Below, in pieces: positions 28,439 through 44,208 of a stretch of DNA of 64,000 nt (positions within the stretch are counted from its first letter, which is position 1; each line of letters begins with the position of its first letter). The position numbers and the translations under genes are program-made. The notes below the pieces were generated by a model. It searched no databases. It saw nothing but the letters and a program-made list of their open reading frames with translations, and had not been told where the DNA came from. The stretch lies in assembly GCA_963813535.1 (NCBI GenBank), contig CAWEZH010000003.1, positions 768,001 through 832,000 on the forward strand. Reading direction: 5' to 3'. The DNA comes from an uncultured Chloroflexia bacterium. GTDB lineage: Bacteria; Chloroflexota; Limnocylindria; Limnocylindrales; CSP1-4.

Positions 28439-28447
28439 TCGGCCCCG

Positions 28448-30682: not shown

Positions 30683-30987
30683 GGTCCCATCCTAGTCGGC
30701 GGCCGGGGTAGGACCCCGGCCACTAGCGGCGGGCGCGTTGGAGTGGTCGTTCGACCTGGGCGCGGAAGCGACGGACGGCTCGCTCGTGACGGATGAGCCA
30801 CCACGTGGCGTACCCGACGACGATCGTCGAGCTCGCTACGGCGGCTGCGGTGAGGCCTTCCATGGGGTCCGAGTCTCGGCTTCGGGGCAGGTCGCGTCGA
30901 GGCGCCAGAAGGGCTATCCGGGGGTTTCCCGATAGCCCGTTCGTACCGGTCGGAGGGACCAGGACCCGGTGCTACGCTGCACCGGCC

Positions 30988-32559
30988 GTGCGTATCCCGT
31001 TCGTCCTATACGCGCTTGCCCTGGTCGCGCGGGTCGTGCTCATCTGGCACTTCCCCGACCCGGCGTATCCCAATTCGTTCTACTACGTGGACGTCGCCCG
31101 GAACCTCGCCGACGGTCGTGGATTCACGACCGACCTGATCTGGATCTTCCCCGAGGTCGGCGGAACGATCCCGGCCGACCCGACCCTGCCGATCCCCTCG
31201 AATGCCCATTGGATGCCACTGGCGTCGCTGGTCCAGGTCCCGTTCATCGCCGTGCTCGGTCCGACGGCGTGGGCATCGGCGCTGCCGTTCGCCCTGTTCG
31301 GCTCCCTGGCCGCACCCCTCACCTGGGCGATGGCCCGCGATGCCGGCGCGTCGCGCATGGTCGCGCTCGGTGCCGGCGTCCTCGTCGCGATCCCCGTCAT
31401 GTCGGTCGTGTACATGGTCCAGCCGGACAACTTCTCCCTCTATCAGCCGCTCGTCCTGGCGGCCCTCTGGATGGGTGCCCGCGGGCTGAAGGGCTCCCCA
31501 CGTGCCTTCGCGGCGGCAGGCCTCCTGGCAGGCCTCGCGACCCTGTCGCGGAACGACGGGCTGCTCGTGCTCGTCGCCCTCGGGCTCGCATTCCTGTGGG
31601 ACCGCTGGCGCCGGAAAGCGATCCCGTGGTCGGCGGCGGTGGCGTGCGTCGGGCTCTTCGTGCTCGTCATGGCGCCGTGGTGGCTGCGCCAGCTCGCGGT
31701 CTTCGGATCCCTCTCCCCGTCGACCGCGTCCGGCAAGGTCCTGTTCATCCGCGATATCGGCGAATGGAACAGCATCACCACGCCCGCGACACTGGAGCAC
31801 CTCCTGGGCATGGGCGTCGGGCCGCTCCTCGCCACGCGCATCGCCGGGCTCCTGTCGGCGATCACCATCTACTCGGTCCTGGTGGGTGGAGTCGTGCTCG
31901 TGCCGTTCATGCTCATCGGGGCCTGGGCACGCCGGCGATCCCTCGACTTCGGTCCGTTCTTCCTGTATGCGGGCCTGCTCTTCGCGTTCTCGGCCCTGGT
32001 GAGCGCCATCCACGTGCCGGGCGGGACCTTCATCCATTCGGCGGTGGCGCTCGCCCCGTACTCGTACGTCCTCGCCCTCGAGGGGATCGGCGTCGGTGTC
32101 GCCTGGGTCGCCGCGCGACGGCCATCGTGGGACGCTGCGGCGGCGACCCGCGCCTTCACCGGCGCAGCGGTGGTGTTCGCCGCCGGGGCGGCGGTCGTCG
32201 GGTCCCTGTTCGTGCACGGGGTGTGGTCCGCCGGTCGGGCCAAGTTCCAGCAGGTCGCCACGGCGCTCGATGCGGCGAGCGCGCCGGCCACGGACCGGGT
32301 GATGTCGATCGACGCCGCGGGCACGAAGTACTGGACCGGCCGTGGCGGCGTGGTGCTGGTCAACGACCCGCTCGAGACGGTCAACGACGTCGCCGACGCC
32401 TACGACATCGATTGGCTGGTGCTCGACCGTGAGGAGAGCGTGAAGCCGATGGCCCCGGTCCTCGACGGCACCGCCCGACCGATTTGGCTCGGCGACCCGA
32501 TCCTGACCGTAGGCAATCCGCTGCAGCTCGCGGTCTACCCGGTCGAGGTGGCGCCGTGA
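30988..32559 (+). CDS. GT39/ArnT-like membrane glycosyltransferase
   Basis: YYVDVARNLADGRG, HWMPL, GLATLSRNDG and PWWLRQLAVFG motifs. Start GTG 30988. Confidence 0.75.
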   Translation: MRIPFVLYALALVARVVLIWHFPDPAYPNSFYYVDVARNLADGRGFTTDLIWIFPEVGGTIPADPTLPIPSNAHWMPLASLVQVPFIAVLGPTAWASALPFALFGSLAAPLTWAMARDAGASRMVALGAGVLVAIPVMSVVYMVQPDNFSLYQPLVLAALWMGARGLKGSPRAFAAAGLLAGLATLSRNDGLLVLVALGLAFLWDRWRRKAIPWSAAVACVGLFVLVMAPWWLRQLAVFGSLSPSTASGKVLFIRDIGEWNSITTPATLEHLLGMGVGPLLATRIAGLLSAITIYSVLVGGVVLVPFMLIGAWARRRSLDFGPFFLYAGLLFAFSALVSAIHVPGGTFIHSAVALAPYSYVLALEGIGVGVAWVAARRPSWDAAAATRAFTGAAVVFAAGAAVVGSLFVHGVWSAGRAKFQQVATALDAASAPATDRVMSIDAAGTKYWTGRGGVVLVNDPLETVNDVADAYDIDWLVLDREESVKPMAPVLDGTARPIWLGDPILTVGNPLQLAVYPVEVAP

Positions 32560-34193
32560 ACCGCGGCGCGTGGCTGTCGGCGCTCGGCATCTTCGGCGTC
32601 GCCCTGCTCGCGCGTGCCATCTTCGCCGGTCAGGTCGTCTTCCCCAAGCCGGAGGACACGGCCTACTACGTCGGCGTCGCGCGGAACCTCGTCGAGGGAC
32701 GCGGGCTGGTGTCGGACGCGCTGTGGAGCTATGCGACGCCGCCGCTGGTCTTCCCGCGACCGGCGTTCGAGGTGTGGTTGCCACTCCCCACCTTCGTGGC
32801 CGCGATCCCGATGCTGCTCCTCGGCCCGACCCTGGGTGCCGCGCAGGTGATGAGCGTGCTCGTCGGGGCGATCGTGCCCGTCCTCGCGTGGCGGCTCGCC
32901 GCCGATGTCGCCGAGGAGCGGAGCATGTCCCCGGTCGGCGCCCGGACGCTGGCACTCGGGACCGGCCTCACCTCGGCCGTCTACCTGCCGCTCGTCCTTC
33001 ACTCGGCGCTCCCGGACTCCACGATGCTCTTCGCGGCTCTCGCTCTCGGCGCGTGCCTGCTCATGGCCCGGGTGCTGGCGGACCCACGCCAGGGCCGTCT
33101 GGCCGACGCACGTCTGCTCGGGATCGGCGTCCTCCTGGGGCTGGCCGCGTTGACCCGCAACGAGGCCGCGTGGCTCGCGCTCACCTGGGTCGGCCTCGTC
33201 GCGGTGGCACGGGATGTCGATCGGGCGACGAAGGTGCGGATCATCGGCGTGGTCGGGATCGTCGCGGCGCTGGTGTTCGCGCCATGGGCGCTCCGCAACT
33301 GGTCGGCCTTCGGCAGCCCGCTACCCGGGCAGGCCGTGACCAACGCCTTCTCCGTCACCGGCTTCGACATCTTCGCCTGGAACGACCCACCCACGTTGGC
33401 TCGCTACCTGGCGGTCGGGCCGGCGCGGCTCATCGAGATGCGTGTCGAGGGCCTCGCCCACAACCTGTTCAACGTCCTGGTGCTGCCCGGTTTTCCCCTG
33501 TCGGCGATCGGCCTCCTTGCGCTGCCATGGACGGCACGCGGCCGAGCCGTCAGGCCGGTCCTCGTGGTCAGCGTCATCACCTTCCTCGTGACGAGCCTGG
33601 TGTTCCCCGTGGCGACGACCTGGGGCACGTTCCTGCATGCCGCAGGACCCGCACAGGTGCTCATCGTCCTGTCGGCCTTGCTGGCGCTCGACGGACTGCT
33701 GGCCGCGGTCGGACGACGGCTTGGCTGGACGAAGGATGTCAGCTGGCTCGGCGCGACGATGGGTGTCGCCTCGAGCGTGCTGTTCTCGGTCGTGCTGCTG
33801 ACCGGTTTCGCCACCGGGTCGCACGAGACCGCGCGTCTGTACGACGAGCTGGCGACGCGCATGTCCGCCGTCGACCGCTCCCTCGCCACACCGGGCATCC
33901 GCCTTATGAGCAACTTCCCGATCTGGGTCGCCGAGACGCAGCGCGCCTCGACGCTCGCGTTGCCGGACGAGCCACCCGAGGATGTCCTCGACCTGGCGGC
34001 CACATTCCCCGGGACCAGATACCTCATCCTGACCAGCCCGGAATCCACCCACTGGCCAGGGGACCTCGCGACCACCCAGACAGGCGCGGAATGCTTCGCG
34101 CCGATCGACCTCGGGCCGTATGCCGGCACCGGCCAGGATCCGCTGCGGTCGACGACCGTCTACGAGATCGGCTGCCCTGGAGTCACCCAGTGA
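32556..34193 (+). CDS. GT39/ArnT-like membrane glycosyltransferase (tandem paralogue of the upstream gene)
   Basis: EDTAYYVGVARNLVEGRG, WLPL, GLAALTRNE and PWALRNWSAFGSP motifs; GTGA overlap. Confidence 0.75.
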   Translation: MNRGAWLSALGIFGVALLARAIFAGQVVFPKPEDTAYYVGVARNLVEGRGLVSDALWSYATPPLVFPRPAFEVWLPLPTFVAAIPMLLLGPTLGAAQVMSVLVGAIVPVLAWRLAADVAEERSMSPVGARTLALGTGLTSAVYLPLVLHSALPDSTMLFAALALGACLLMARVLADPRQGRLADARLLGIGVLLGLAALTRNEAAWLALTWVGLVAVARDVDRATKVRIIGVVGIVAALVFAPWALRNWSAFGSPLPGQAVTNAFSVTGFDIFAWNDPPTLARYLAVGPARLIEMRVEGLAHNLFNVLVLPGFPLSAIGLLALPWTARGRAVRPVLVVSVITFLVTSLVFPVATTWGTFLHAAGPAQVLIVLSALLALDGLLAAVGRRLGWTKDVSWLGATMGVASSVLFSVVLLTGFATGSHETARLYDELATRMSAVDRSLATPGIRLMSNFPIWVAETQRASTLALPDEPPEDVLDLAATFPGTRYLILTSPESTHWPGDLATTQTGAECFAPIDLGPYAGTGQDPLRSTTVYEIGCPGVTQ

Positions 34194-34888
34194 ACGATGC
34201 CCATGCTCCGCAACCGATGGATGCCGCCCCGGTCGTGCTTGAAGCACTCGACGCCGAGCGAGCTCGCATCGGGCGCGAGATCCACGACGGACCCGCACAG
34301 GTGCTGACCAATGCCCTCTTCGAGGTCGACGACATCGAGCGGCTGGTCGAACGCGATCCCGCCGCGGCGCTGGTCAGCCTGCGCCAGTTGCGAGCGATGC
34401 TGCGGCGCGAGCTCGCCAACGTCCGTGAGTTCATCTCGGAGCTCCGACCGCCGACCGTCGACGCCGGCGGCCTCGACGATGCGTTGACCGACGCCGTCGA
34501 TGGATTCCGGACGGCGACGCGGCTCGCCGCCATCACTGATCTTCGCGGTCCGAGCGGTCAGCTCGACGACCGCCAACGGACCGTGGCCCTCCGAGTCGCC
34601 CAGGAGGCATTACAGAATGTCCGCAAGCACGCCCAGGCATCCACCGTCGTGGTGAGCACGGACGTGACCGGCGATGAATGGACCCTCGAGATCCGTGACG
34701 ACGGTCACGGATTCGACATGGGTACGGTGGCGGCCCGCGGCCGTCGGAACTTCGGCATGCAAGTGATGCATGAAAGAGCCGAGCAGATCGGCGCCCGCTT
34801 CGACGTACGATCTCGACAGGACGGCGGTACCGTGGTCCGACTCGCGATCCCGACGGGCGCCCCAACGGGAGCAAAGGAGAACGGATGA
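34190..34888 (+). CDS. HisKA_3 histidine kinase without a sensor domain
   Basis: ERARIGREIHDGPAQ H-box, QEALQNVRKHA N-box, RDDGHGF G1 and FGMQVMHERA; only about 232 aa. Confidence 0.88.
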   Translation: MNDAHAPQPMDAAPVVLEALDAERARIGREIHDGPAQVLTNALFEVDDIERLVERDPAAALVSLRQLRAMLRRELANVREFISELRPPTVDAGGLDDALTDAVDGFRTATRLAAITDLRGPSGQLDDRQRTVALRVAQEALQNVRKHAQASTVVVSTDVTGDEWTLEIRDDGHGFDMGTVAARGRRNFGMQVMHERAEQIGARFDVRSRQDGGTVVRLAIPTGAPTGAKENG

Positions 34889-35631
34889 CTGCGATGGAAT
34901 ACGGCGGACCGGAACGGCGTCGGGGTGGTCCCGATCGTCGAGACGCGGGTGAGACGACCCGCATCCTCATCGTCGACGATCACGCGCTGTTCCGAGTCGG
35001 GATCGCCAACATCCTCTCGCGCGAACCAGACCTCGAGGTCGTCGGCGAGGCCGAGGATTCCCGGAGCGCGGTCGACCGCGCCCTGGAGACCTCGCCCGAC
35101 ATCATCCTGATGGATCTGTCGTTGCCGTCACCCGGCGGCATCGAGACCACTCAGCGCATCAAGCGCGAGCTGCCCGCGACCGGGATCATCGTGCTCGCCG
35201 TCAACGAGGACGAGGATTCGCTGTTCGACGCGATCAAGGCCGGTGCCGCGGCATTCATCCTCAAGGACGTGGGTCCGGACGATCTCGTCACGATCATCCG
35301 CCGTGTCGCCGATGGTGAGTTCCTCATCAACGACAAGGTCTTCTCGAAGCCGGCGGTCGCCACGCGCGTGCTCAAGGAGTTCCGCGAGCTGGCGGTCTAC
35401 GGCCAGGAGGCCGCGCCCATCTTCGCCCCGCTGTCACCGCGCGAGGTCGAGATCCTCGACAACATCGCGCAGGGCATGACCAACAAGCAGGTCGCCTATG
35501 CCCTCACGATCAGCGAGCAGACGGTCAAGAACCATATGAGCTCGATCCTTCGCAAGCTGTCGGTGAACGACCGCACGCAGGCCGTGGTGTACGCGATGCG
35601 CCAGGGCTGGATCCGGATGCCCGAGGACTGA
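34885..35631 (+). CDS. NarL/LuxR (DegU-like) response regulator with an Arg-rich N-terminal extension
   Basis: ILIVDDH, IILMD, FILKD and LSPREVEIL...TNKQVA...SEQTVKNH motifs; AAAGGAG Shine-Dalgarno before ATG 34885. Confidence 0.93.
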   Translation: MTAMEYGGPERRRGGPDRRDAGETTRILIVDDHALFRVGIANILSREPDLEVVGEAEDSRSAVDRALETSPDIILMDLSLPSPGGIETTQRIKRELPATGIIVLAVNEDEDSLFDAIKAGAAAFILKDVGPDDLVTIIRRVADGEFLINDKVFSKPAVATRVLKEFRELAVYGQEAAPIFAPLSPREVEILDNIAQGMTNKQVAYALTISEQTVKNHMSSILRKLSVNDRTQAVVYAMRQGWIRMPED

Positions 35632-36806
35632 TGGTGACCGACCCCGCGATCCCGCCGACCTCGACCGTCGAGGCGTTATCGGCGCGGCTCGCGGACGACC
35701 TCGGCACGATCGACAAGGAGCTCGACGAGATCGATCTCCTGATCTCGCAGGCCAGGACCGAGGCGGGCCGGCACGAGACCCGTCGGTCGACCGCCGAGGA
35801 GAAGCTCGCTTCGCTGCCCGAGAGCGCCGACGTCCGGGATCGACTCGAACAGACGACCAACCTGGTCGCGCTGACGAAGCGAGCCGCGCTGATGGAGACG
35901 CAGGTCGAGGTGCTCGAGGGGAAGCGACGATCGATCGGTCGCTACCGCGATGCCATCGCTGCGTACATCGATGCCCTGGCCGGCGTCGACCCGAACGCGA
36001 CGGAGGGTGAAGGCGACCAGCCGATGCCGCCGGCGGTCGCCCGGCTGCTCATGAGCGCCCAGGAGGACCTCCGGCGCGAGATCGCGCGTGAGATGCACGA
36101 CGGCCCGGCCCAGAGCCTGACCAACATCGTGCTCCAGGCGCAGATCGTCGAGCGCCTGATGGCGACGGATCCGGACGGTGCCGCCACCGAGGTGCACCAG
36201 CTCGTGGCCATGGTCCAGCAGACGCTGGAGGCCACCAAGACGTTCATCTTCGATGTCCGGCCGATGGTGCTCGACGACCTCGGTCTGGTGCCGACCCTCC
36301 GACGGGCCACGCGCGAGCGCAGCCGACGCGCCGAGGTGCCGGTCGAGTTCGAGTCGATGGGTCAGGACCGCCGGCTGCCGATGGACCTCGAGAGTGGCCT
36401 GTTCCGGATGCTCGACGAGGCGCTGGCGGCATTCCTCGCCGGCGACCCGGACCAGGTGTCGCTCAAGCTGGACTGGGGCGATCGACTGACGGCCGACGTC
36501 GTTGCGACCCGTGCGGTCGCTGCCGCGGAGGCGCGGTCCGACGTGGAGATCCCGAGCGAAGAAGGTGACGAGAACCTGCCGCCCGCGCTGGCTGCCCTCG
36601 TCGAGGAGCGGCGTGCCGCCAAGCGCAAGGCGGCCGAAGCGGCCGTTCGCGCGGCGGTCGTGGCGCTGCCGCCCACGACGTGGCGGGAGATCCAGGATCG
36701 AGCCGTGTCGGTCGGTGTCGAGGCGGAGCTCCGAGCCGACGGCAGCCACCTGCACCTCGAGACCGAACTGCCCGCGCTGGACAGCGCGGTGTCCGGGACG
36801 TCGTGA
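35631..36806 (+). CDS. DegS-like coiled-coil HisKA_3 protein with a degenerate ATPase domain
   Basis: N-terminal coiled coil and RREIAREMHDGPAQ H-box; the N-box Asn and DxGxG motif are absent. Confidence 0.75.
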   Translation: MVTDPAIPPTSTVEALSARLADDLGTIDKELDEIDLLISQARTEAGRHETRRSTAEEKLASLPESADVRDRLEQTTNLVALTKRAALMETQVEVLEGKRRSIGRYRDAIAAYIDALAGVDPNATEGEGDQPMPPAVARLLMSAQEDLRREIAREMHDGPAQSLTNIVLQAQIVERLMATDPDGAATEVHQLVAMVQQTLEATKTFIFDVRPMVLDDLGLVPTLRRATRERSRRAEVPVEFESMGQDRRLPMDLESGLFRMLDEALAAFLAGDPDQVSLKLDWGDRLTADVVATRAVAAAEARSDVEIPSEEGDENLPPALAALVEERRAAKRKAAEAAVRAAVVALPPTTWREIQDRAVSVGVEAELRADGSHLHLETELPALDSAVSGTS

Positions 36807-36961
36807 CCGCGTTCGCGCGCGGGCAAGGCCTCGTCGAGTACGGGCTGATCCTGGCCATCACCGCGGTGCTCACGACCGTGTGGCTCGTGGTGTTCGGCGG
36901 GACCGTGTCGGACGCGCTCACGGCGATCGGGATCGCCATCGACCGGGCGACCGGGGGCTGA
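36803..36961 (+). CDS. flp: Divergent Flp-family pilin (minor pilin candidate)
   Basis: VTAFARG/QGLVEYGLILA plus a hydrophobic helix; GTGA overlap with the upstream stop. Confidence 0.75.
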   Translation: MTAFARGQGLVEYGLILAITAVLTTVWLVVFGGTVSDALTAIGIAIDRATGG

Positions 36962-37086
36962 AGGGAGTACCGGTGCGTTCAGACGACCGGCGGTACCATC
37001 GTCTCAGTATCCGGGCGTGGGGTGCCTACATATATTGGCGCAGCCCTCGATCTGAGGGTGAGTACTCATCCAGGAGGCACCTACGA

Positions 37087-37257
37087 ATGGCGCTCTTCAA
37101 CTCGTTCCTCGCCACGCTTCGCCGTGACGAGGAGGGCCAGGGTCTCGCGGAGTACGCGCTGATCCTCGCACTCATCGCGATCATCGCGATCATCGCGCTG
37201 ATCTTCCTGGGCAACCAGGTCAGCACCATCCTGAGCACGGTCGGCAGCTCGGTCTAA
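37087..37257 (+). CDS. flp: Flp type IVb/c pilin, copy A (56 aa)
   Basis: AGGAGG SD; MALFNSFLATLRRDEEG/QGLAEYALILALIAIIAIIALIFLGNQVSTILSTVGSSV. Confidence 0.95.
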   Translation: MALFNSFLATLRRDEEGQGLAEYALILALIAIIAIIALIFLGNQVSTILSTVGSSV

Positions 37258-37278
37258 GACCTCGCTTCGACAACGCAG

Positions 37279-37314
37279 GACCGCCGGTCATGAGACCGGC
37301 GGTCTTTCGTTTTT
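37279..37314 (+). terminator. Intrinsic terminator after flp A
   Basis: GACCGCCGGTC-atga-GACCGGCGGTC followed by TTTCGTTTTT. Confidence 0.88.
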
Positions 37315-37345
37315 CCGGCGCGTCCGTCTAGGTAGATGTGACCGT

Positions 37346-37374
37346 TTGACAGGACGCATCACCGCCCGTACGGT
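37346..37374 (+). promoter_or_regulatory. Sigma70-type promoter for flp B
   Basis: TTGACA-N17-TACGGT. Confidence 0.75.
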
Positions 37375-37427
37375 GGCCGCCGCCTCCACGACAGGAGGTT
37401 CTCGAGAAAGGAGCACCCGGAACTCGA

Positions 37428-37598
37428 ATGAGGCAGTTTCTCGGACTTATCGATCCATCCCGCCGCGACGAGGAGGGCCAGGGTCTCGCGGAGTACGCGC
37501 TGATCCTCGCACTCATCGCGATCATCGCGATCATCGCGCTCATCTTCCTGGGCAACCAGGTCAGCACCATCCTGAGCACGGTCGGCAGCTCGGTCTAG
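37428..37598 (+). CDS. flp: Flp pilin, copy B (56 aa; missed by the ORF track)
   Basis: MRQFLGLIDPSRRDEEG/QGLAEYALILALIAIIAIIALIFLGNQVSTILSTVGSSV; mature part identical to copy A. Confidence 0.93.
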   Translation: MRQFLGLIDPSRRDEEGQGLAEYALILALIAIIAIIALIFLGNQVSTILSTVGSSV

Positions 37599-37617
37599 AG
37601 CCCCCATCGACAGACTT

Positions 37618-37653
37618 GACCGCCGGCCCTGCGGGGACCGGCGGTCGATGTTT
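37618..37653 (+). terminator. Hairpin or terminator after flp B
   Basis: GACCGCCGG...CCGGCGGTC followed by GATGTTT; related to the flp A hairpin. Confidence 0.65.
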
Positions 37654-37682
37654 ACGGATGCACCAGCGTCTGCACCAAATCG

Positions 37683-37711
37683 TTGACACTGGGGTAGTAC
37701 CACCGTACCGT
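37683..37711 (+). promoter_or_regulatory. Sigma70-type promoter for flp C
   Basis: TTGACA-N17-TACCGT. Confidence 0.75.
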
Positions 37712-37763
37712 GACCCAGCCCTCGCCCAATGAGGAGCCACGAAGGAAAGGGGGATCCGGCACA

Positions 37764-37934
37764 TTGACAGTTCTCAACGCTCTTATCGATACATTCCGGC
37801 GTGACGAAGACGGCCAGGGTCTTGCGGAGTACGCGCTGATCCTCGCACTCATCGCGATCATCGCCATCATCGCGCTCATCTTCCTGGGCAACCAGGTCAG
37901 CACGATCCTGAGCACGGTCGGCCGCTCGGTCTGA
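37764..37934 (+). CDS. flp: Flp pilin, copy C (56 aa, TTG start)
   Basis: Purine-rich SD; (M)TVLNALIDTFRRDEDG/QGLAEYALILALIAIIAIIALIFLGNQVSTILSTVGRSV. Confidence 0.93.
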   Translation: MTVLNALIDTFRRDEDGQGLAEYALILALIAIIAIIALIFLGNQVSTILSTVGRSV

Positions 37935-37956
37935 TACGCGGACCCGAAACGGTCGA

Positions 37957-37990
37957 GACCGCTGCCACCCACAAGGGGGCAGCGGTCTTT
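37957..37990 (+). terminator. Intrinsic terminator after flp C
   Basis: GACCGCTGCC...GGCAGCGGTC followed by TTT. Confidence 0.75.
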
Positions 37991-38049
37991 CATGTAGGGT
38001 GAGCTCCACTGGCGGTGCCTCGGCGCCGCCAACGGGACCATCGGCTCAA

Positions 38050-38077
38050 TTGACTTGGCACCGTCCGCCCATACGGT
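38050..38077 (+). promoter_or_regulatory. Sigma70-type promoter for flp D
   Basis: TTGACT-N16-TACGGT. Confidence 0.6.
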
Positions 38078-38110
38078 TGTGACATGTCTTCGGAAAGGAG
38101 GTGAATCGAT

Positions 38111-38287
38111 ATGGGGGCTCGTCGTGTCGTGTCCTACCTGGGGCGGCTCCGAGGGGACGAGATCGGTCAAGGCCTAGCTGAATACGCTCTGATCCTGGCA
38201 CTCATCGCGATCCTTGCAATCATCAGCCTCATCTTCCTCGGCAACCAGATCAGCGACAAACTCAGCGTCGTTGGTAACGCGGTCTGA
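38111..38287 (+). CDS. flp: Flp pilin, copy D (58 aa, divergent; missed by the ORF track)
   Basis: AAAGGAGGTG SD; MGARRVVSYLGRLRGDEIG/QGLAEYALILALIAILAIISLIFLGNQISDKLSVVGNAV. Confidence 0.92.
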   Translation: MGARRVVSYLGRLRGDEIGQGLAEYALILALIAILAIISLIFLGNQISDKLSVVGNAV

Positions 38288-38307
38288 TCGACCTTCTCGG
38301 CAACGTC

Positions 38308-38346
38308 AAAACGGCCCATCGGACATCGGGTCCGGCGGGCCGTTTT
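38308..38346 (+). terminator. Intrinsic terminator after flp D
   Basis: AAAACGGCCC...GGGCCGTTTT. Confidence 0.75.
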
Positions 38347-38496
38347 CCCGTCTCCGGACCTTGCAGCGAACCTTGCAGCGTGCGTGGCTTCCTGCCGATT
38401 CCTGCCAGAGGGTCCTAGCCCATTGGTATAGTCGCGCGCCCTGAGGCCTTTGCTACAGTGGTGCCACCTGTCACACCACGTCTCGGGGAGATTCTC

Positions 38497-39378
38497 TTGA
38501 AGCGCTCTAATCGATTGGTCCTGCTCATCGGGGTCTTCCTGGCGATCGTCGCGTTCGTCGCGGTGCTCGTCCTACGGCCTGCGACACCGCAAGAGACTGC
38601 CGAACTAACGGAGCCAACCGTCGTGGCCGCGGTCGACATCCCGCTCGGCGCCGCCATCACGGCCGACCAGGTCAAGACTGTCGACCTGCCCATCACCAGC
38701 CGAAATGAGACCGCGTTCAACGATGTATCGCAGGTCCTCGGCAGGCGTGTCCGTCAGGCCGTCGTCACCGACGCCCAGCTCGACGCCGCCACGTTCGGCG
38801 AGGAGGGCGGCGGCACGATCCTCAATATCGACGTCCCCGCCGGGAAGCGCGCGATCACGGTCCAGGTCGACCAGGTGACCGGTGTCGGCACCGTCATCAA
38901 AACGGGCGACTACGTGGACATGGTGGTCGGTATCCGCGCCGACAAGTTCCCCGTCATCACGACCAATCCCGCCGACGACTCGTTCACCGTCGTCGCCGGC
39001 CTGAACGGCACCAGCGTCAAGCTGCTCCTCCAGGGCATGCAGGTCCTGGGCACGCTGCTCCCACCCCCGACGACCACGACCGCTGAAGGCACGCCCGATC
39101 AGCCCGGGACGGCCCTGACCGGCCAGCAGGAGATCGTCGCCCTCGCCGTGGACGCCCAGCAGGCCGAGGTCATCAAGTTCGCCCAGATGGACGGCGAGAT
39201 CAGCCTCATCCTGCGCTCACCCGACGACTTCACCGACCCGGTCTCGGGTCAGCCCATCGAGCCGCCGCCGCTGCCTGATGCGACGACGGGCATCATCCTC
39301 AAGTCGCTCGTCGACCGCTACGGCGTCCTTCCGCCGGAGCTCATCGAGACGGTCCTGCCGTCGCAGGCCCGGCGCTAA
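38497..39378 (+). CDS. cpaB: Flp pilus assembly protein CpaB/RcpC
   Basis: N-terminal TM, SAF domain (VVAAVDIPLG), VPAGKRAITV, GDYVD and QQAEVI motifs. TTG start after GGGGAG. Confidence 0.9.
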   Translation: MKRSNRLVLLIGVFLAIVAFVAVLVLRPATPQETAELTEPTVVAAVDIPLGAAITADQVKTVDLPITSRNETAFNDVSQVLGRRVRQAVVTDAQLDAATFGEEGGGTILNIDVPAGKRAITVQVDQVTGVGTVIKTGDYVDMVVGIRADKFPVITTNPADDSFTVVAGLNGTSVKLLLQGMQVLGTLLPPPTTTTAEGTPDQPGTALTGQQEIVALAVDAQQAEVIKFAQMDGEISLILRSPDDFTDPVSGQPIEPPPLPDATTGIILKSLVDRYGVLPPELIETVLPSQARR

Positions 39379-39501
39379 CCAAGAGACCCATCCGGCATCG
39401 AGCCGGTGACCATGACCCAGCGCGACGGGCGCGATGGACCGACCGGTCCCCGCGCCCGTCGAGCGTCAACCGAAACGTAAGGACGAGAGCCAGACCCTCA
39501 G

Positions 39502-40770
39502 ATGGCCGACCAGATCCGTGTCCTGATCGTCGACGATATCCCGGAGACGCGCGACCACCTCTCGAAGCTCCTGGGCTTCGAGGGCGACATCGATGTCGTC
39601 GGTGCCGCCGCGTCCGGGACCGAAGCACTCACGCTCGCGACATCGCTCACGCCGGACATCGTCCTGATGGACATCAACATGCCGGACATGGACGGAATCG
39701 CCACGACCGAGGAGATGGCCCGCGCCGTCCCGACGGCGTCGGTGATCATGATGTCGGTCCAGGGCGAGGCGGATTACCTCCGCCGCTCGATGCTCGCCGG
39801 CGCGCGCGAGTTCCTCGTCAAGCCGTTCAGCAGCGATGAGCTGACCGCATCGATCCGTCAGGTCTACTCCCGCGAGCGCGAGAAGATGTCGCGCATGGCG
39901 ATCGTCGCCGCGGAAGCCAGCCACGGAGCCGGCGGGACCAGCCTGACCCCGAGCGGGGACCCCGGCCAGGTCGTGGCGGTCTTCAGCCCCAAGGGTGGCG
40001 TCGGTCGGACGACCCTCGCCGTCAACCTCGCGGTCGCCGCGGCGACCGAGTTCGGCAAGAAGGTCGTGCTCGTCGACGGCTCGTTCCAGTTCGGCGACGT
40101 CGGCGTCCTGCTGAACCTCAATCCCAAGAACAAGTCCATCGCCGACCTCGCCCCCGAGCTCGAGCAGCCCGGTCACGAGGTCGAGTCGATCGATACCTTC
40201 GTGATCAACCACTCCGCAGGCATCCGGGTGCTGCTCGCCCCGCCGAGCCCGGAGATGGCCGAGCTGATCACCCCGGTCGGGATCAGGCGCGTGATCGACG
40301 CCCTGCGCCTGACGCACGAGCTGGTCGTGGTCGACTGCACGTCGTTCTTCAACGACACGACGCTGGCGATCCTCGACTCGGCCGATACGATCCTGACGCT
40401 GCTCAGCCTCGAGATCACAAGCATCAAGAACATGCGTCTGTTCCTCGAGGTGTCGGAGCAGCTCGGTTGGGAGGGCGGCAAGATCCGTCTCGTGCTCAAC
40501 CGCGCCGACTCGGCGCTCGGGATCCGTGTCGCGGACGTCGAGCATTCGATCGGCCGGAAGGTCGATGAGACCATCGTCAGCGACGGTCGCACGGTGGTCT
40601 ATGCGCTCAACCGCGGCGTACCGTTCTTCCTCAGTAATCGGGAGGCGCAGGTCTCCCAGGACATCCTCCGGCTGGCACGCTCCATCGTCGGCGAGCGGGT
40701 GCAGGTCGCACCCACGACCGAGGACCCGCGCAAGGCCACGCAGAAGAAGTCGTTGTTCGCATGGCGCTGA
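39502..40770 (+). CDS. cpaE: CpaE/TadZ: receiver domain plus MinD-like ATPase
   Basis: VLIVDD...LMDINMP...VKP receiver; SPKGGVGRTT deviant Walker A; FGDV and VLNR motifs. Confidence 0.9.
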   Translation: MADQIRVLIVDDIPETRDHLSKLLGFEGDIDVVGAAASGTEALTLATSLTPDIVLMDINMPDMDGIATTEEMARAVPTASVIMMSVQGEADYLRRSMLAGAREFLVKPFSSDELTASIRQVYSREREKMSRMAIVAAEASHGAGGTSLTPSGDPGQVVAVFSPKGGVGRTTLAVNLAVAAATEFGKKVVLVDGSFQFGDVGVLLNLNPKNKSIADLAPELEQPGHEVESIDTFVINHSAGIRVLLAPPSPEMAELITPVGIRRVIDALRLTHELVVVDCTSFFNDTTLAILDSADTILTLLSLEITSIKNMRLFLEVSEQLGWEGGKIRLVLNRADSALGIRVADVEHSIGRKVDETIVSDGRTVVYALNRGVPFFLSNREAQVSQDILRLARSIVGERVQVAPTTEDPRKATQKKSLFAWR

Positions 40771-40828
40771 TCGTCGTGACCGATCAGGCCGTCCAGTCCG
40801 GCCCTCGGGGCAAGAAGGGGTGTAGATC

Positions 40829-42238
40829 ATGTCCCTGTTGAAGCGGATCGAGAGTGCTCGACCCGGTAGCGCCGGAGAGGCGCCCGCGGGTGGGGCTCCG
40901 GTCTCGAACGTACCGGCTCCAGTCGGTGGGCCGCCATCGATGCCGACGACGCCGCGTCTCCAGACGCAGGCGCCCGTCCGGGAGTCGTTCCGGGACGTGA
41001 AGTTCCGGATCCAGAACCGGGTCATCCAGGACCTGGATCCGAAGCTCGACCTGTCCAACCAGGTCGAGGTCCGTCGCCAGATCGAAGAGATCTTCGGCAA
41101 GGTCATCGACGAGGAAGGCCTCGCGCTGACCCGTGCCGAGCGCGTGCGGATGCTCGAGCAGATCACGGACGAGATCATCGGTCTCGGCCCGCTCGAGCCG
41201 CTCCTGCGCGACGAGTCGATCACGGAAGTCATGGTCAACGGGCCCCGCCAGGTCTATATCGAACGATCCGGCAAGCTCGAGCTGACCAACGTCGTCTTCC
41301 AGAACGACGACCACGTCATGCGCATCATCGACCGCATCATCGCCCCGATCGGCCGCCGCGTTGACGAGTCGTCGCCCATGGTCGACGCCCGCCTGACCGA
41401 CGGCTCGCGCGTGAATGCCATCATCCCGCCGCTGTCCCTCGTCGGACCGGTGATCACGATCCGGAAGTTCTCGGCGTCCCCCTTCACCGTCGACGACCTC
41501 GTCCGGTTCGGCACCGCGACCGCAGACATGTTCGACTTCCTGCGGGCATGCGTGGAGGCACGGCTGAACATCTTCGTCTCCGGTGGCACGGGCTCCGGCA
41601 AGACCACGACCCTGAACGTCCTCTCATCGTTCATCCCGAACGACGAGCGGATCGTCACGATCGAGGACGCCGCCGAGCTGCAGCTCCGCCAGGAGCACGT
41701 CGTGACGCTCGAGTCGCGACCACCCAACATCGAGGGCAAGGGCGCCATCCCGATCCGGGAGCTGGTGCGCAACGCCCTCCGGATGCGGCCCGATCGCATC
41801 ATCGTCGGCGAGTGCCGGTCGGGCGAAGCGCTCGACATGCTCCAGGCCATGAACACCGGCCACGACGGCTCGATGTCGACCGGCCACGCCAACTCGCCAC
41901 GCGACATGCTTGCCCGTCTCGAGACGATGGTCCTGATGGCCGGCGTCGACCTGCCGCTGCGGGCCATCCGCGAGCAGGTCGCGTCCGCGGTCGACCTCAT
42001 CGTCCAGCAGAGCCGGCTCAAGGACGGGACGCGCAAGATCGTCAACATCACCGAGGTCCAGGGCATGGAAGGCGATGTCATCGTCATGCAGGACGTCTTC
42101 GTCTTCGAGCAGACCGGCGTCGTCGAGGGCAAGATCCAGGGACGCCTCAAGCCGACCGGGATCCGGCCCAAGTTCGTCGAGAAGTTCGAAGTCATGGGCA
42201 TCAACCTGCCGCCCGGACTCTTCGGCTTCACCTACTAG
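40829..42238 (+). CDS. cpaF: Tad assembly ATPase CpaF/TadA
   Basis: GLGPLEPLL, DESSPMVDARL, GGTGSGKTT, LRMRPDRIIVGE and AMNTGHDGS motifs. Confidence 0.96.
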   Translation: MSLLKRIESARPGSAGEAPAGGAPVSNVPAPVGGPPSMPTTPRLQTQAPVRESFRDVKFRIQNRVIQDLDPKLDLSNQVEVRRQIEEIFGKVIDEEGLALTRAERVRMLEQITDEIIGLGPLEPLLRDESITEVMVNGPRQVYIERSGKLELTNVVFQNDDHVMRIIDRIIAPIGRRVDESSPMVDARLTDGSRVNAIIPPLSLVGPVITIRKFSASPFTVDDLVRFGTATADMFDFLRACVEARLNIFVSGGTGSGKTTTLNVLSSFIPNDERIVTIEDAAELQLRQEHVVTLESRPPNIEGKGAIPIRELVRNALRMRPDRIIVGECRSGEALDMLQAMNTGHDGSMSTGHANSPRDMLARLETMVLMAGVDLPLRAIREQVASAVDLIVQQSRLKDGTRKIVNITEVQGMEGDVIVMQDVFVFEQTGVVEGKIQGRLKPTGIRPKFVEKFEVMGINLPPGLFGFTY

Positions 42239-42249
42239 GGGGTTAGCTC

Positions 42250-43266
42250 GTGGATGCGTTCACGCTCGCCGTCGCTGCCGTCGCGGCCCTCGCGGTCATC
42301 CTGATCGCGTTCGGCGTCGCGGGCTCCGGCAGTTCCGGCATCTCGGACCGCCTCGAGCGCTACGCGTCCGGTCGCGGCGACGGCGCCAAGGCGACGGCGG
42401 CAGCCAGCCAGGGTCCGATCAGCGATCTCATCGCCCAAAGCCAGGCACTCGCCAACCTGAACAAGGTCGTCGAGGGTCGGGACTTCGGTGCGAACCTCTC
42501 GCGCGAGCTCGCGCGGGCGGACCTGCGGCTCAAGCCGTCCGAGTACCTCTTCATCTGGCTCGGCTCGATCGTCGGCGTCCCCGTGGGGATGTTCATCTTC
42601 GGGTTCTTCCTGCCGGCCCTCCAATCGCCGATCGCCCTGCTCGTCGGTGCACTCATCGGCTTCATGCTTCCGAGGTTCTGGCTCAATCGCCGCAAGAACG
42701 GCCGCCTCAATGCCTTCAACAAGCAGCTGCCGGACACTATCACCCTGATCGCGAACGCACTGCGCGCCGGCTCCTCGTTCCTCCAGGCCATCGAGCTCGT
42801 CGTGCGTGAGTCGCGTCCGCCGATCTCGACCGAGTTCAGCCGCGTCATCCGCGAGGTCAACCTCGGCCTGCCGTTCGAGCAGGCACTCGAGAACATGGTC
42901 CGGCGCGTCCGGTCCGACGACCTCGAGCTGATGGCCACGGCGATCTCGATCCAGCACCAGGTCGGCGGCAACCTCGCCGAGATCCTGGACTCGATCGCCT
43001 ACACCATCCGCGAGCGGATCCGCATCAAGGGCGAGATCCGCACGTTGACGGCGCAGCAGCGCCTGTCGGGCTACGTCGTCGGCTTCCTGCCGATCGGCCT
43101 GGCCGGGTTCCTGTTCATCGCAGCCCCCGGGTTCATGGACCCGATGTTCTTCAATCCCCCGGGTATCGCCGGCCTGCCGGCCGGCGTGATCATCCTGTTG
43201 TTCGGCGGGATCATGATGTTCATCGGCTTCATGCTCATCCGGAAGATCGTGGATATCGAGGTCTAG
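42250..43266 (+). CDS. tadB: TadB (T2SS F family)
   Basis: QLPDTITLIANALRAG and QVGGNLAEILD motifs. Confidence 0.92.
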   Translation: MDAFTLAVAAVAALAVILIAFGVAGSGSSGISDRLERYASGRGDGAKATAAASQGPISDLIAQSQALANLNKVVEGRDFGANLSRELARADLRLKPSEYLFIWLGSIVGVPVGMFIFGFFLPALQSPIALLVGALIGFMLPRFWLNRRKNGRLNAFNKQLPDTITLIANALRAGSSFLQAIELVVRESRPPISTEFSRVIREVNLGLPFEQALENMVRRVRSDDLELMATAISIQHQVGGNLAEILDSIAYTIRERIRIKGEIRTLTAQQRLSGYVVGFLPIGLAGFLFIAAPGFMDPMFFNPPGIAGLPAGVIILLFGGIMMFIGFMLIRKIVDIEV

Positions 43267-43269
43267 TCG

Positions 43270-44208
43270 ATGAGCGACATGTTGCCCATCATCGTCGCCG
43301 CGCTCGCCGCGGGATCCATCCTGCTCATCGTCATCGGACTCGCGGGCGGCTCGAACGTCGACCCGGTCCAGGCCAGGCTCACGCAGCTCGGGACGATGCA
43401 GGCCAAGAACCTCGAGGAGCTCGAGCTCCAGCAGCCGTTCATCGAGCGGACGCTGCGCCCCCTCGTCGCCAGTCTTTCGGGCCGGATGTCACGAGCAGCG
43501 TCGTCCTCGTTCACCGAGCGAACGGAGAAGCGGCTCGCCCTTGCCGGCAATCCCGGCGACCTCAGGGTGTCCGACTGGCTCGGCGTCAAGGCGATCGGCG
43601 CGATCGTCATGGGCGTCCTGTTCGCCTTCCTGTTCGGGGTGCTCGGCATCCTCGGCTTCCCGTTCCCGATCGGGTTCGGGCTCGGGATCCTCGGCGCCGT
43701 CCTCGGCTACATCCTGCCCGAGTTCTGGCTCGGCGGGCGCGTCAAGAAGCGCCAAAAGGCCATCCTCCTGATGATCCCGGACACGCTGGACCTCCTCACC
43801 ATCTCCGTGCGGGCTGGTCTCGGCTTCGACGCTGCCCTCGCCAAGGTCGTGGAGAAGCTCAAGGGTCCGTTGTCGGACGAATTCCGGCGAGCCCTCGCAG
43901 AGGTCCGCGTCGGCAAGGCGCGCCGGGACGCGCTGCGCGACATCGTGCCGCGCACCGAGGTCGGGCCGCTGACCAACTTCATCGGCGCCATCATCCAGGC
44001 CGAGCAGCTCGGCGTGTCGGTGTCGAAGGTCCTGCAGGTCCAGTCCGAGCAGCTACGCATCGAGCGCCGCCAGCGTGCAGAGGAACAGGCCGCGAAGGCA
44101 CCGATCAAGATGCTCTTCCCTCTCGTCGGATGCATCTTCCCGTCGCTGTTCATCGTCATCCTGGGCCCGGCCATCATCCTCATCGTCCAGAACCTGGGCG
44201 GCACCTAA
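43270..44208 (+). CDS. tadC: TadC (T2SS F family)
   Basis: PDTLDLLTISVRAGLGFD and AAKAPIKMLFPLV..IFP motifs. Confidence 0.92.
   Translation: MSDMLPIIVAALAAGSILLIVIGLAGGSNVDPVQARLTQLGTMQAKNLEELELQQPFIERTLRPLVASLSGRMSRAASSSFTERTEKRLALAGNPGDLRVSDWLGVKAIGAIVMGVLFAFLFGVLGILGFPFPIGFGLGILGAVLGYILPEFWLGGRVKKRQKAILLMIPDTLDLLTISVRAGLGFDAALAKVVEKLKGPLSDEFRRALAEVRVGKARRDALRDIVPRTEVGPLTNFIGAIIQAEQLGVSVSKVLQVQSEQLRIERRQRAEEQAAKAPIKMLFPLVGCIFPSLFIVILGPAIILIVQNLGGT

Follow-up and report, generated by a model that had tools for sequence, protein, structure and literature searches.

The window analysed here, a stretch of 64,000 nucleotides whose positions serve as coordinates throughout, derives from the 3.28-Mb, 69% G+C genome of an uncultured Chloroflexota bacterium of the class Limnocylindria, an abundant and uncultured class of soil and freshwater. 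On its plus strand, to which all features described below belong, a gene for a polytopic membrane glycosyltransferase-like protein of the GT-C type (32484..34193), with a hydrophobic-rich translation, a weak match to the NCBIfam LA_3751/LA_3752 glycosyltransferase (E 7e-5) and no match in Pfam, is followed by a soluble histidine kinase (34217..34888, start codon ATG at 34217), in which the Pfam domains HisKA_3 (52.3 bits) and HATPase_c (46 bits) occupy the C-terminal part of a long open frame. Next come the response regulator P0001 of 248 amino acids (34885..35631) and a kinase-like pseudokinase (35631..36806) composed of a coiled-coil N-terminus and HisKA_3 as the only Pfam match (56.2 bits); no ATPase domain was detected by Pfam in this protein and its NCBIfam matches end at about residue 268. 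The GTG start codon of a first, divergent Flp-like pilin (36803..36961; translation ...GQGLVEYGLILAI...), the first copy of the repeat family D2, overlaps the pseudokinase stop codon (GTGA). Four more tandem Flp pilin genes at approximately 37087-37257 (start calculated from the ORF translation), 37428-37598, 37710-37934 and 38111-38287 are recognized by a G/QGLAEYALIL motif in their ORF translations, by a weak Pfam Flp_Fap match (E 6e-4) and by the repeat families D1 and D2, with hairpins between the genes and a terminator-like hairpin at 37277-37306. The subsequent genes encode CpaB (38458-39378; Pfam RcpC/SAF), a receiver-CpaE/TadZ protein (39502-40770; Response_reg and AAA_31), the CpaF ATPase (40829-42238; T2SSE), TadB (42250-43266; T2SSF) and TadC (43270-44208; T2SSF), so that pilins and machinery (38458..44208) together constitute a Tad/Flp locus. 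The preliminary description of this DNA had positioned the regulator directly upstream of such a locus; the Tad locus does follow, but the pseudokinase gene intervenes. The regulator would be co-transcribed with the soluble HisKA_3 kinase, with the kinase-dead paralogue and with the first Flp pilin and, because of this arrangement, most likely controls expression of the flp/tad pilus.

Conservation of this gene neighbourhood was assessed at 70 loci. In 69 of them a relative of the kinase lies upstream of the regulator match, at a distance of approximately 0.5-0.8 kb; L017 gave no match, and the kinase is the sole neighbour found at nearly all loci compared. Relatives of the GT-C-like gene (tblastn, 25-61% identity) precede the regulator at 21 of 30 loci of the family designated f1 and 9 of 20 loci of the family f4, and CpaF is found downstream of the regulator in all 20 f4 loci. 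The pairing of a soluble HisKA_3 kinase and a regulator of the NarL family is equally realized in DegS-DegU of Bacillus subtilis, while PprA-PprB of Pseudomonas aeruginosa is likewise a two-component system inside a flp-tad locus; unlike these two systems, the one described here has an additional paralogue that is kinase-dead, is translationally coupled to a pilin gene and bears an arginine-rich tail on its regulator.

The ATG of the regulator (34885) overlaps the TGA of the upstream kinase gene by only 4 nt (ATGA) and is preceded at a distance of 5 nt by a Shine-Dalgarno sequence, AAGGAG (34874..34879), as read directly from the DNA. Pfam matches above the respective cut-offs to a receiver domain (Response_reg, PF00072; residues 27-139, 34963..35301; 87.6 bits) and a GerE/LuxR helix-turn-helix (PF00196; residues 182-237, 35428..35595; 79 bits) establish the domain make-up of the NarL/FixJ family, bearing out the initial assignment as a NarL/LuxR-type response regulator with an arginine-rich motif between Shine-Dalgarno sequence and receiver. 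The best NCBIfam match, to NarL, reaches 164.9 bits with a cut-off of 250, and no match at the equivalog level is obtained. In the AlphaFold2 (AF2) model the mean pLDDT is 82.6, with values below 50 in the linker residues 172-180. The receiver possesses D31, D32, D77 and K127 together with Ala105 at the position usually occupied by Thr/Ser, and the gene product is proposed to be a phosphorylatable NarL/FixJ response regulator. Column counts over the 70 loci retrieve the four residues in all 30 f1 loci and Ala105 in 27 of these; f4 regulators have Gly, Thr or Glu at position 32, and regulators of the families f3 and f5 have Glu at position 77 in 18 of 20 cases.

The receiver is preceded by an N-terminal tail (residues 1-23, MTAMEYGGPERRRGGPDRRDAGE; 34885..34953) predicted to be disordered, with pLDDT values below 50 at residues 1-3 and 5-18; positions 34885-34944 translate into MTAMEYGGPERRRGGPDRRD. 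The tail harbours the motif Y6-G-G-P-E-R-R-R-G-G-P-D-R-R19 (34900..34941), of which the segment E10-R19, generalized as [DE]RR-x-G-x(1-2)-[DE]RR and referred to as the core below, is more widely conserved; it consists of two acid-Arg-Arg units with a short linker containing Gly between them. Five arginines occur within ten residues; residues 6-23 carry a net charge of only about +1. The tandem does not represent a chance pattern: six-frame scanning of the whole 3.28-Mb genome with the regular expression GP[DE][RK]R.{0,12}GP[DE][RK]R gave one occurrence, in the regulator gene; the single unit [YFW].GP[DE][RK]R occurs four times, once in the regulator and three times in Arg-rich stretches which resemble non-coding frames, as judged from the printed sequences and not from computed composition. 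A relaxed motif gave 30 six-frame matches, with coding composition downstream in the regulator gene only. By both the strict and the relaxed scans, the tail is found on no other real protein in this genome. Another relaxed-motif match falls in an FtsX-type permease (L191), within its cytoplasmic tail at the C-terminus, and was judged unrelated.

Among P0001 and its 120 best database matches (89-98% identity, n=121), the sequence Y.GP[DE]RRRGGPDRR is retained exactly in 114 proteins and the core in 120, with E10 and D17 conserved as strongly as the motif arginines, while residues 1-4 and 20-22 of the tail vary; after DRR, a glycine at +3 is found in 111 and a glutamate at +4 in 104 of the 121 homologues. 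At every motif arginine all four CGN codons are used among 34 distinct DNA versions, a set picked by regular expression and hence informative on synonymous turnover and not on amino-acid invariance. Since the motif is exact in 114/121 proteins while its flanks vary and its codons turn over, the tail is, by the pattern of substitutions, under protein-level selection. A cause at the RNA or DNA level was rejected, as synonymous sites turn over freely and the gene overlap extends over 4 nt only.

Beyond the near homologues, the core is N-terminal in 21/30 f1 loci and 20/20 f4 loci, and the conservation in orthologues, which the preliminary description had singled out for checking, therefore holds in two families. 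Nine f1 loci out of 30 have lost the second [DE]RR unit, namely L028 and eight that read Y.GP[ED]RRR[PL]G...R, and the unit also decays in the close database representatives P0124, P0159 and P0133; the tandem is thus not indispensable. The Y-x-G-P part is confined to one family, with 0/20 f4 loci displaying it. Scanning of GTDB species genomes for GP[DE]RR-xx-GP[DE]RR gave at least 120 stretches, of which 80 loci were read: 12 are regulator orthologues, one of them (L095) frame-broken after the motif, and 68 are not, most of the latter with wrong-frame codon composition. Pfam analysis of 40 non-orthologue ORFs of at least 120 aa recovered only KARI_C, TadE, weak MreB, WH3_Lhr, YceG and Meth_synt_2, and the motif never fell inside a matched domain; no c-di-GMP-related domain context was seen among the non-orthologue matches listed.

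The core is not restricted to the N-terminus. While 38 of 40 f3/f5 orthologues have the motif at neither end, in the remaining two (L064 and L211) the core follows ...RQGWI at the C-terminal end. Among the 120 closest homologues that the database holds for the L211 protein, 13 possess a C-terminal core with unrelated linkers and none an N-terminal core. The C-terminal tails lie immediately behind the final helix of the DNA-binding domain, contain no Y-x-G-P and mostly have x4 spacing between the Arg pairs, as have the f4 tails, with x5 in f1. In a quick maximum likelihood tree, f1 and f4 form a clade (SH-aLRT 100) in which 18/18 rows have the N-terminal core or a partial form of it, and the 17 rows that have a C-terminal tail, the full core in 11 and a looser form in 6, all fall into one subclade of the other clade (SH-aLRT 91, 23 rows). 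The location of the core at the N-terminus in two families and at the C-terminus in a subclade of a third points to a portable linear module, and its C-terminal reappearance on the same orthologue is new here.

To our knowledge, the sole short linear peptide able to bind c-di-GMP alone is the ARR of the Cle proteins, which, when described, was almost confined to Alphaproteobacteria and CheY-like motor regulators. The Cle motif has been defined as a tandem [Y/F]XGP[D/E][R/K]R (Nesper 2017; PMC5677366), as the preliminary description had correctly stated, and the Cle determinant subsequently, by experiment, as DRR-x11-(R/K)RxxD together with a Tyr that stacks (Hee 2020; PMC7382256). According to these two papers, the ARR is a graftable unfolded peptide that folds upon binding, and 294 of 302 ARR proteins belong to Alphaproteobacteria (PMC5677366; PMC7382256). 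In the binding data of the second paper, the CleD peptide with Y163A has a Kd of 4,365 nM versus 177 nM, single-residue loop deletions lead to 338-1,948 nM, a 2-11 fold increase in Kd, and half-peptides show no binding (PMC7382256).

The tail of P0001 resembles this peptide in part. Its first repeat, YGGPERR, fits every specified position of [Y/F]XGP[D/E][R/K]R, and the second, RGGPDRR, every one except the aromatic position. When the 26-aa tail was compared by phmmer with 177,635 PDB sequences, the sole match was CleD (6sft_A) with a non-significant E = 1.1 (12.8 bits), the alignment of AMEYGGPERRRGG with AVAYVGPDRRRFN running via Y-x-G-P-[DE]-R-R-R. Y6-G-G-P-E10-R11-R12 aligns with CleD Y150-R156, the first unit as a whole is the same as CleD Y150-R157, and a second unit G-P-x-R-R is present. 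In both cases a short Arg-rich peptide lies beside a receiver domain, unfolded on its own in Cle and predicted disordered here, and in both the module can be moved, in Cle by grafting and here by occurrence of the core at both termini. On the other hand, the Arg pairs are separated by x5 (E10R11R12-x5-R18R19) instead of x11; a second stacking aromatic is lacking, with Arg13 at the place of CleD Tyr163 and none of the 121 homologues having an aromatic residue between its Arg pairs; and Asp17 replaces CleD Arg167. The RxxD turn (CleD R169...D172) has no counterpart, R19 being followed by D20-A-G-E23 with the acid after the second RR at +1 and +4 and not at +3, and helix alpha-4 of P0001 (residues 110-119, DSLFDAIKAG) contains none of the arginine present in Cle receivers. 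Furthermore, the tail precedes the receiver, or follows the helix-turn-helix, in a DNA-binding NarL-type regulator of Chloroflexota (Limnocylindria), whereas in Cle it is C-terminal to the receiver in a single-domain CheY of Alphaproteobacteria. Of the originally suggested Cle-like tandem, the fit of the first repeat and a partial resemblance to CleD thus persist, but the determinant DRR-x11-(R/K)RxxD does not apply. As a binder of c-di-GMP, the tail would be a compressed variant of an Arg-rich c-di-GMP peptide and not a member of the Cle ARR family.

In the genome, 20 GGDEF and 4 EAL matches were obtained, genes for which the preliminary description had suggested a check, and no PilZ match. 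Among 151 sampled Limnocylindria genomes GGDEF is found in 145 and PilZ in 15; a genome has 7-22 GGDEF matches in the family to which the regulator belongs and 4-22 across families having any. With many GGDEF proteins and rare PilZ in the class, most c-di-GMP receptors of the lineage are still to be identified. Motif presence does not track the presence of diguanylate cyclases, as in f3, where the motif is mostly absent, GGDEF was found in 49/49 sampled genomes. A PilZ-type motif consists of RRxxxR followed by a PilZ barrel with [D/N]xSxxG; this reading was rejected, as neither P0001 nor the genome has a PilZ domain and the Arg spacing here is RRxxxxR. Read as a PilZ-like RRxxxR or as an I-site RxxD, the core agrees in some variants only (f4 with Arg at position 4), and both readings were dropped. 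When residues 1-145, in two copies, were co-folded with four c-di-GMP, the score was 0.02 against a mark of 0.42; it does not cover the ligands and speaks neither for binding nor against it.

Our best guess, a tentative one drawn from sequence comparison, is that the tail constitutes an Arg-rich receptor of a new kind, with c-di-GMP or a different guanine nucleotide as its ligand. The disordered 23-residue tail would act as an autonomous portable linear module with affinity for a second messenger based on guanine, most probably c-di-GMP, each [DE]RR gripping guanines like D154-R155-R156 of CleD, with Asp on N1 and Arg on the Hoogsteen edges. The conserved acids beside the Arg pairs suggest that base recognition fits better than plain backbone binding, judging from the contacts given in PMC7382256. 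The peptide might fold around an intercalated c-di-GMP dimer, or the two tails of a regulator dimer might share the ligand as in BldD, and ligand binding would in either case add a second input to phosphorylation. Protein-level selection, the core in f1 and f4, its portability, the likewise graftable and unfolded Cle ARR, CleD as the only PDB match, the predicted disorder, the uniqueness of the motif in the genome and the many GGDEF and rare PilZ proteins speak for this reading. The unmatched Cle determinant, the lack of an alpha-4 Arg, the losses of the second unit, the absence of the motif from 38/40 f3/f5 orthologues in spite of GGDEF genes in all sampled f3 genomes and the E = 1.1 of the PDB match count against it.

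Among the alternatives, the tail may be a short linear motif that docks onto another protein, for instance the kinase, the pseudokinase, RNA polymerase, CpaE/TadZ or CpaF, without involvement of a small ligand, which we regard as unlikely and still deserving serious consideration. Disorder, shortness, strong conservation and occurrence at either terminus are features that linear motifs typically show, docking by salt bridges would agree with the mixed acid/base pattern and a HisKA_3 kinase accompanies the regulator at 69/70 loci. However, the motif is kept in f4, where a separate downstream pseudokinase gene is missing, and in L064, where no Tad genes occur within the 9 kb read downstream, while the kinase also resides beside the 38 f3/f5 orthologues without motif, so that no partner co-varies with the motif. 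Improbable is a role as a flexible nucleic-acid-binding arm through which the LuxR-type helix-turn-helix would gain further contacts to DNA or RNA. Disordered basic arms are common on transcription factors, and five Arg in ten residues and the position directly behind the last DNA-binding-domain helix in the sister subclade agree with this possibility; E10 and D17 being conserved like the arginines, the low net charge and the attachment of the f1/f4 tail to the receiver, a whole domain and a low-confidence linker away from the helix-turn-helix, do not. That the tail represents a genuine Cle-type ARR, sharing both homology and binding mode with the alphaproteobacterial motif, as had been proposed at first, is very improbable: the exact match of the first repeat and CleD as the only PDB match are outweighed by differences in spacing, second aromatic, RxxD, alpha-4 Arg, position versus the receiver and taxonomic range, and by the absence of Y-x-G-P from f4 and the C-terminal versions. 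Least credible and disfavoured is a functionless, neutral low-complexity by-product of high G+C, as, even though DNA of 69% G+C often gives strings rich in Arg, Gly and Pro and 68 of the 80 pattern-scan loci read were not orthologues, most of these 68 looking like wrong-frame strings, the motif is exact in 114/121 homologues with synonymous turnover, unique in the genome and recurs as the core at the other terminus in a second clade.

The guanine-nucleotide receptor favoured here would join other transcription factors that respond to c-di-GMP while differing from them in its binding element. The motif of VpsT, W[F/L/M][T/S]R, is absent from P0001, in which the only Trp is part of GWIR. The bipartite RXD-X8-RXXD motif of BldD is situated in a folded C-terminal domain and shares with the tail the combination of acid and Arg on a transcription factor, but differs in residue order (DRR here versus RXD/RXXD) and spacing. 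In Streptomyces, tetrameric c-di-GMP dimerises BldD (PMC4151990), a possible model for dimerisation by two tails. LuxR/NarL-type regulators that sense c-di-GMP, with a receiver, a LuxR-type helix-turn-helix and a c-di-GMP-responsive output, are represented by VpsT of Vibrio cholerae and DevR/DosR of Mycobacterium smegmatis, and DevR combines c-di-GMP with phosphorylation by its kinase (PMC12564702). The combination of a NarL/LuxR regulator with c-di-GMP, which the preliminary description did not know to be described, is already known; according to a table in that review, VpsT binds via its REC and HTH domains and DevR via its C-terminal domain, neither by a terminal Arg-rich peptide (PMC12564702), and only the tail-based route would be new. 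A literature search found no description of this tail.

Taken to its full extent, the sequence comparison might be read such that [DE]RR-x-G-x(1-2)-[DE]RR represents a new class of portable c-di-GMP/guanine-nucleotide receptors gained at opposite termini by two branches of a regulator family, and that by gluing or refolding regulator dimers c-di-GMP switches the Flp/Tad pilus genes together with phosphorylation or, in lineages with a pseudo-receiver, instead of it, a scheme that is possible but doubtful as a whole. Even if the core binds no nucleotide, its presence at opposite ends of orthologues marks a strongly selected linear motif. If the scheme is true, the nine-residue core could be employed as a minimal tag or sensor, the range of known mechanisms by which cells read c-di-GMP would grow and c-di-GMP would be linked to Tad pilus transcription through a two-component system. 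Equally, the core would then be one of the missing effectors, and the first candidate, in a class with many diguanylate cyclases and almost no PilZ.

The arginine-rich tail of the pilus-linked NarL-type regulator studied here (P0001) is a real element, unique in its genome and under selection at the level of the protein. The gene (34885-35631, plus strand) encodes 248 residues with the N-terminus MTAMEYGGPERRRGGPDRRDAGETTRILIVDDH, and its ATG overlaps the stop codon of the upstream gene as ATGA, 5 nt behind the Shine-Dalgarno sequence AAGGAG (34874-34879, plus strand). Position, sequence and Shine-Dalgarno site had been given correctly in the preliminary description. The NarL/LuxR-type assignment made there is equally borne out by Pfam, in which residues 27-139 score as a receiver domain and residues 182-237 as a GerE/LuxR helix-turn-helix. 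Since the top NCBIfam model, NarL, has a cut-off of 250 bits and reaches only 164.9, P0001 is a generic NarL/FixJ-family regulator, the equivalog of no named one. In an AlphaFold2 model based on a 94-row alignment, receiver and helix-turn-helix are confident (mean pLDDT 82.6) and residues 1-3 and 5-18 lie below a pLDDT of 50; the tail is predicted by this model to be disordered.

The regulator heads a Tad pilus locus, although not, as had been proposed, directly, with a pseudokinase gene (35631-36806; coiled coil and HisKA_3, no detectable ATPase domain) intervening. Upstream lies the gene of a sensor-less kinase with HisKA_3 and HATPase_c domains (34217-34888). A block of envelope-sugar genes (25257-34193) runs into this two-component operon. 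It comprises Polysacc_synt_2, a DegT aminotransferase, Wzy_C (minus strand), PMT_2 and a polytopic glycosyltransferase-like gene (32484-34193), two GT-C-like membrane glycosyltransferases among them, and co-regulated glycosylation of the pilin or the surface is a possibility. On the other side, the stop codon of the pseudokinase gene overlaps the GTG start of a divergent Flp-like pilin (36803-36961) as GTGA at 36803, and this pilin is therefore translationally coupled to the signalling operon. It belongs to an array of five tandem Flp pilin genes (36803-38287), the four others of which share 70-88% DNA identity over 164 nt, with interspersed hairpins such as those at 37277-37306 and 38298-38356. 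According to Pfam, CpaB, CpaE/TadZ, CpaF, TadB and TadC follow in this order, and the CpaE/TadZ homologue (39502-40770) carries a full-scoring receiver (Response_reg, 97 bits) ahead of its ParA/MinD-like ATPase, through which the pilus machine itself may take phosphorylation input too.

Scanning of the source genome (3.28 Mb, 69% G+C, 92.9% complete) in six frames for the tandem GP[DE][RK]R.{0,12}GP[DE][RK]R returned the P0001 gene as single match. The looser [DE]RR.G.{1,2}[DE]RR matched 30 times, with coding codon composition downstream at the P0001 gene only; the sole other coding-frame occurrence among the matches is at the C-terminal end of an FtsX-type permease of about 1040 residues (L191, G000:C3:957683-960821), which reads ...GERRGGRADRRAG... 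and was judged to be a positive-inside cytoplasmic tail. In a genome-wide pattern scan, a contig of Methylobacterium indicum (L075) displayed GPERRQDGPDRR in open-frame sequence upstream of a TadE-like domain, a chance-looking match that is probably an untranslated leader.

Among P0001 and its best 120 database homologues (89-98% identity), the exact Y.GP[DE]RRRGGPDRR is kept in 114 of 121 and the core [DE]RR-x-G-x(1-2)-[DE]RR in 120 of 121 sequences, with variable residues 1-4 and 20-22 on either side; DRR is followed by x-x-G in 111/121 and then by E in 104/121. Every arginine of the motif is encoded by all four CGN codons across 34 distinct DNA versions. As these versions were chosen by regular expression, synonymous turnover alone counts as evidence, and this turnover shows selection on the protein, not on the RNA.

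In a sample of 151 genomes of Limnocylindria, the Chloroflexota class to which the source organism belongs, seven of them unpublished and used in tallies only, with no sequence taken from them (G067, G087, G091, G096, G106, G112 and G123), the regulator has a relative (E <= 1e-40) in 44/44 genomes of the own family (f1), 45/50 of f4, 48/49 of f3 and the single genome of f5, and in 0/6 of f2, the genomes of which span 1.0-1.4 Mb. The motif was compared at 70 loci (30 of f1, 20 of f4, 20 of f3/f5). Y-x-G-x-[DE]-R-R is present at all 30 f1 loci and the exact 14-residue motif at 16; eight have lost the second unit, reading Y.GP[ED]RRR[PL]G...R, and at one (L028) the motif is shortened. At 20/20 f4 loci ERR[RQKT]G[GAR]DRR is found 15-40 residues from the start, with Y-x-G-P and the second proline at none, and Tad genes follow directly downstream, with CpaF at all 20. 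CpaF was not found in the stretches covered at the 20 f3/f5 loci, three of which end at contig ends. The conservation among orthologues that the preliminary description had named as a check thus holds in two families, with both [DE]RR units, and so the core, at 21/30 f1 and 20/20 f4 loci, but not in f3/f5, where the N-terminal motif occurs at 0/20. Among the best 150 database representatives, seven, all orthologue-like, carry the core; at the clade's margin, the representatives P0124, P0159, P0133, P0129, P0131 and P0140 have lost the motif.

The conserved core is portable between the two protein termini. Two f3 proteins, both from genus g19, lack the motif at the N-terminus and extend beyond the usual C-terminus ...RQGWI, ending in ...GAERRTGADRRQTAR (L064, genome G052) and ...GNERRSGEDRRQEEG (L211, genome G040); these are the only two of 40 f3/f5 loci with a C-terminal core. 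Among the nearest 120 database homologues of the L211 protein, 13 bear a C-terminal [DE]RR-x-G-x(1-2)-[DE]RR extension (P0275-P0282, P0284, P0287, P0289, P0324 and P0373) on otherwise unrelated linkers, P0289 having three [DE]RR units with the core spacing between the last two only; about 15 more display a looser tail, E[RK][RK]-VPAxP-ER[KR], and none of the 120 has the N-terminal motif. In a quick maximum-likelihood tree of 52 rows (SH-aLRT support only, midpoint root, seven rows left out including all five intended outgroups), f1 and f4 form one clade (SH-aLRT 100) with the N-terminal motif in 18/18 rows, three partial, and the f3-like sequences the other (SH-aLRT 100), within which the rows with a tail at the C-terminus, 17 in all, fall into one subclade of 23 rows (SH-aLRT 91). 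The same nine-residue core therefore occurs at opposite termini of one orthogroup. Its recurrence at the other protein end is a new finding, is how an autonomous, portable linear module behaves and speaks against any role that depends on the N-terminus itself.

Receiver residues vary in step with the motif. Positions 31 and 127 are Asp and Lys throughout; f1 has Asp at 32, Asp at the phospho-acceptor position 77 and Ala at 105 (27/30), f4 has Gly, Thr or Glu at 32, Asp at 77 and Ala at 105, and f3/f5 have mostly Ala or Ser at 32, Glu at 77 (18/20) and Thr at 105. The f3/f5 orthologues L051-L070 with Glu as phospho-acceptor (18/20) equally lack the second Asp of the acidic pocket and are likely phosphorylation-independent pseudo-receivers, still flanked by kinase and pseudokinase genes.

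The preliminary description had likened the tail to the c-di-GMP-binding arginine-rich peptide (ARR) found in Cle proteins, which are CheY-like. In the portions consulted of Nesper et al. 2017 (PMC5677366), the ARR is defined as tandem [Y/F]XGP[D/E][R/K]R C-terminal to CheY-like receivers, is reported from 302 proteins, 294 of them alphaproteobacterial, and acts with a contributing arginine of helix alpha-4. The corresponding portions of Hee et al. 2020 (PMC7382256), who solved the peptide complex, reduce the determinant to DRR-x11-(R/K)RxxD, with D154, R155, R156, Y163, R168, R169 and D172 contacting the ligand, Y163 stacking on guanine, and R157, G165 and R167 mattering too; the N-terminal hairpin that contains Y150 can be dispensed with, the Kd rises from 177 nM to 338-1,948 nM on single deletions in the loop, and half-peptides show weak binding or none. 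The resemblance stands for Y6-R13, which keep Y150-x-G-P-D-R-R-R, and for G15-R19, which keep G-P-x-R-R, and fails for the x11 loop, of which six residues including Y163 are absent, and for RxxD, the acids after the second arginine pair being at +1 and +4, not +3; moreover, Asp occupies the position of R167 and helix 110-119 has no arginine. With the 26-residue tail as query, phmmer matched a single entry among all PDB sequences, the CleD peptide 6sft_A, and this match is not significant (E = 1.1). The tail is not a member of the Cle ARR. However, its conserved acid-Arg-Arg unit, present twice, is the guanine-gripping unit of the c-di-GMP-binding peptide CSP1, and by analogy the tail may work like an ARR.

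The source genome has 20 GGDEF and 4 EAL matches, confirming the expectation of such genes, and no PilZ match. GGDEF is found in 145/151 genomes of the class, the six without it all being f2, and PilZ in 15/151 (0/6 in f2), the unpublished G087 among the 15; the lineage therefore makes c-di-GMP, mostly without the canonical receptor. Since GGDEF occurs in 49/49 f3 genomes, the regulator of which is mostly without the motif, cyclase presence does not discriminate for the motif. We tentatively propose c-di-GMP, or a guanine nucleotide related to it, as the ligand of the tail, the binding of which would add a second input to phosphorylation. That it is instead a protein-docking linear motif is possible, if rather improbable, and an arm for nucleic acids is unlikely. 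A true Cle ARR is, given the loop and the RxxD, very improbable, and neutral low complexity is hardly credible beside the selection on the protein.

In the part consulted of a review (PMC12564702), VpsT is a REC-HTH c-di-GMP sensor (Kd 3.2 uM) and the NarL-type DevR binds c-di-GMP via its C-terminal domain, with c-di-GMP stimulating its phosphorylation by DevS; regulators of this type that sense c-di-GMP are therefore known, and to combine the signal with phosphorylation in one of them is not new in itself. In full-text searches of the literature outside subscription journals, no paper was found on a tail of the P0001 type or on c-di-GMP in Limnocylindria. An arginine-rich terminal peptide as the route of c-di-GMP into such a regulator would be new.
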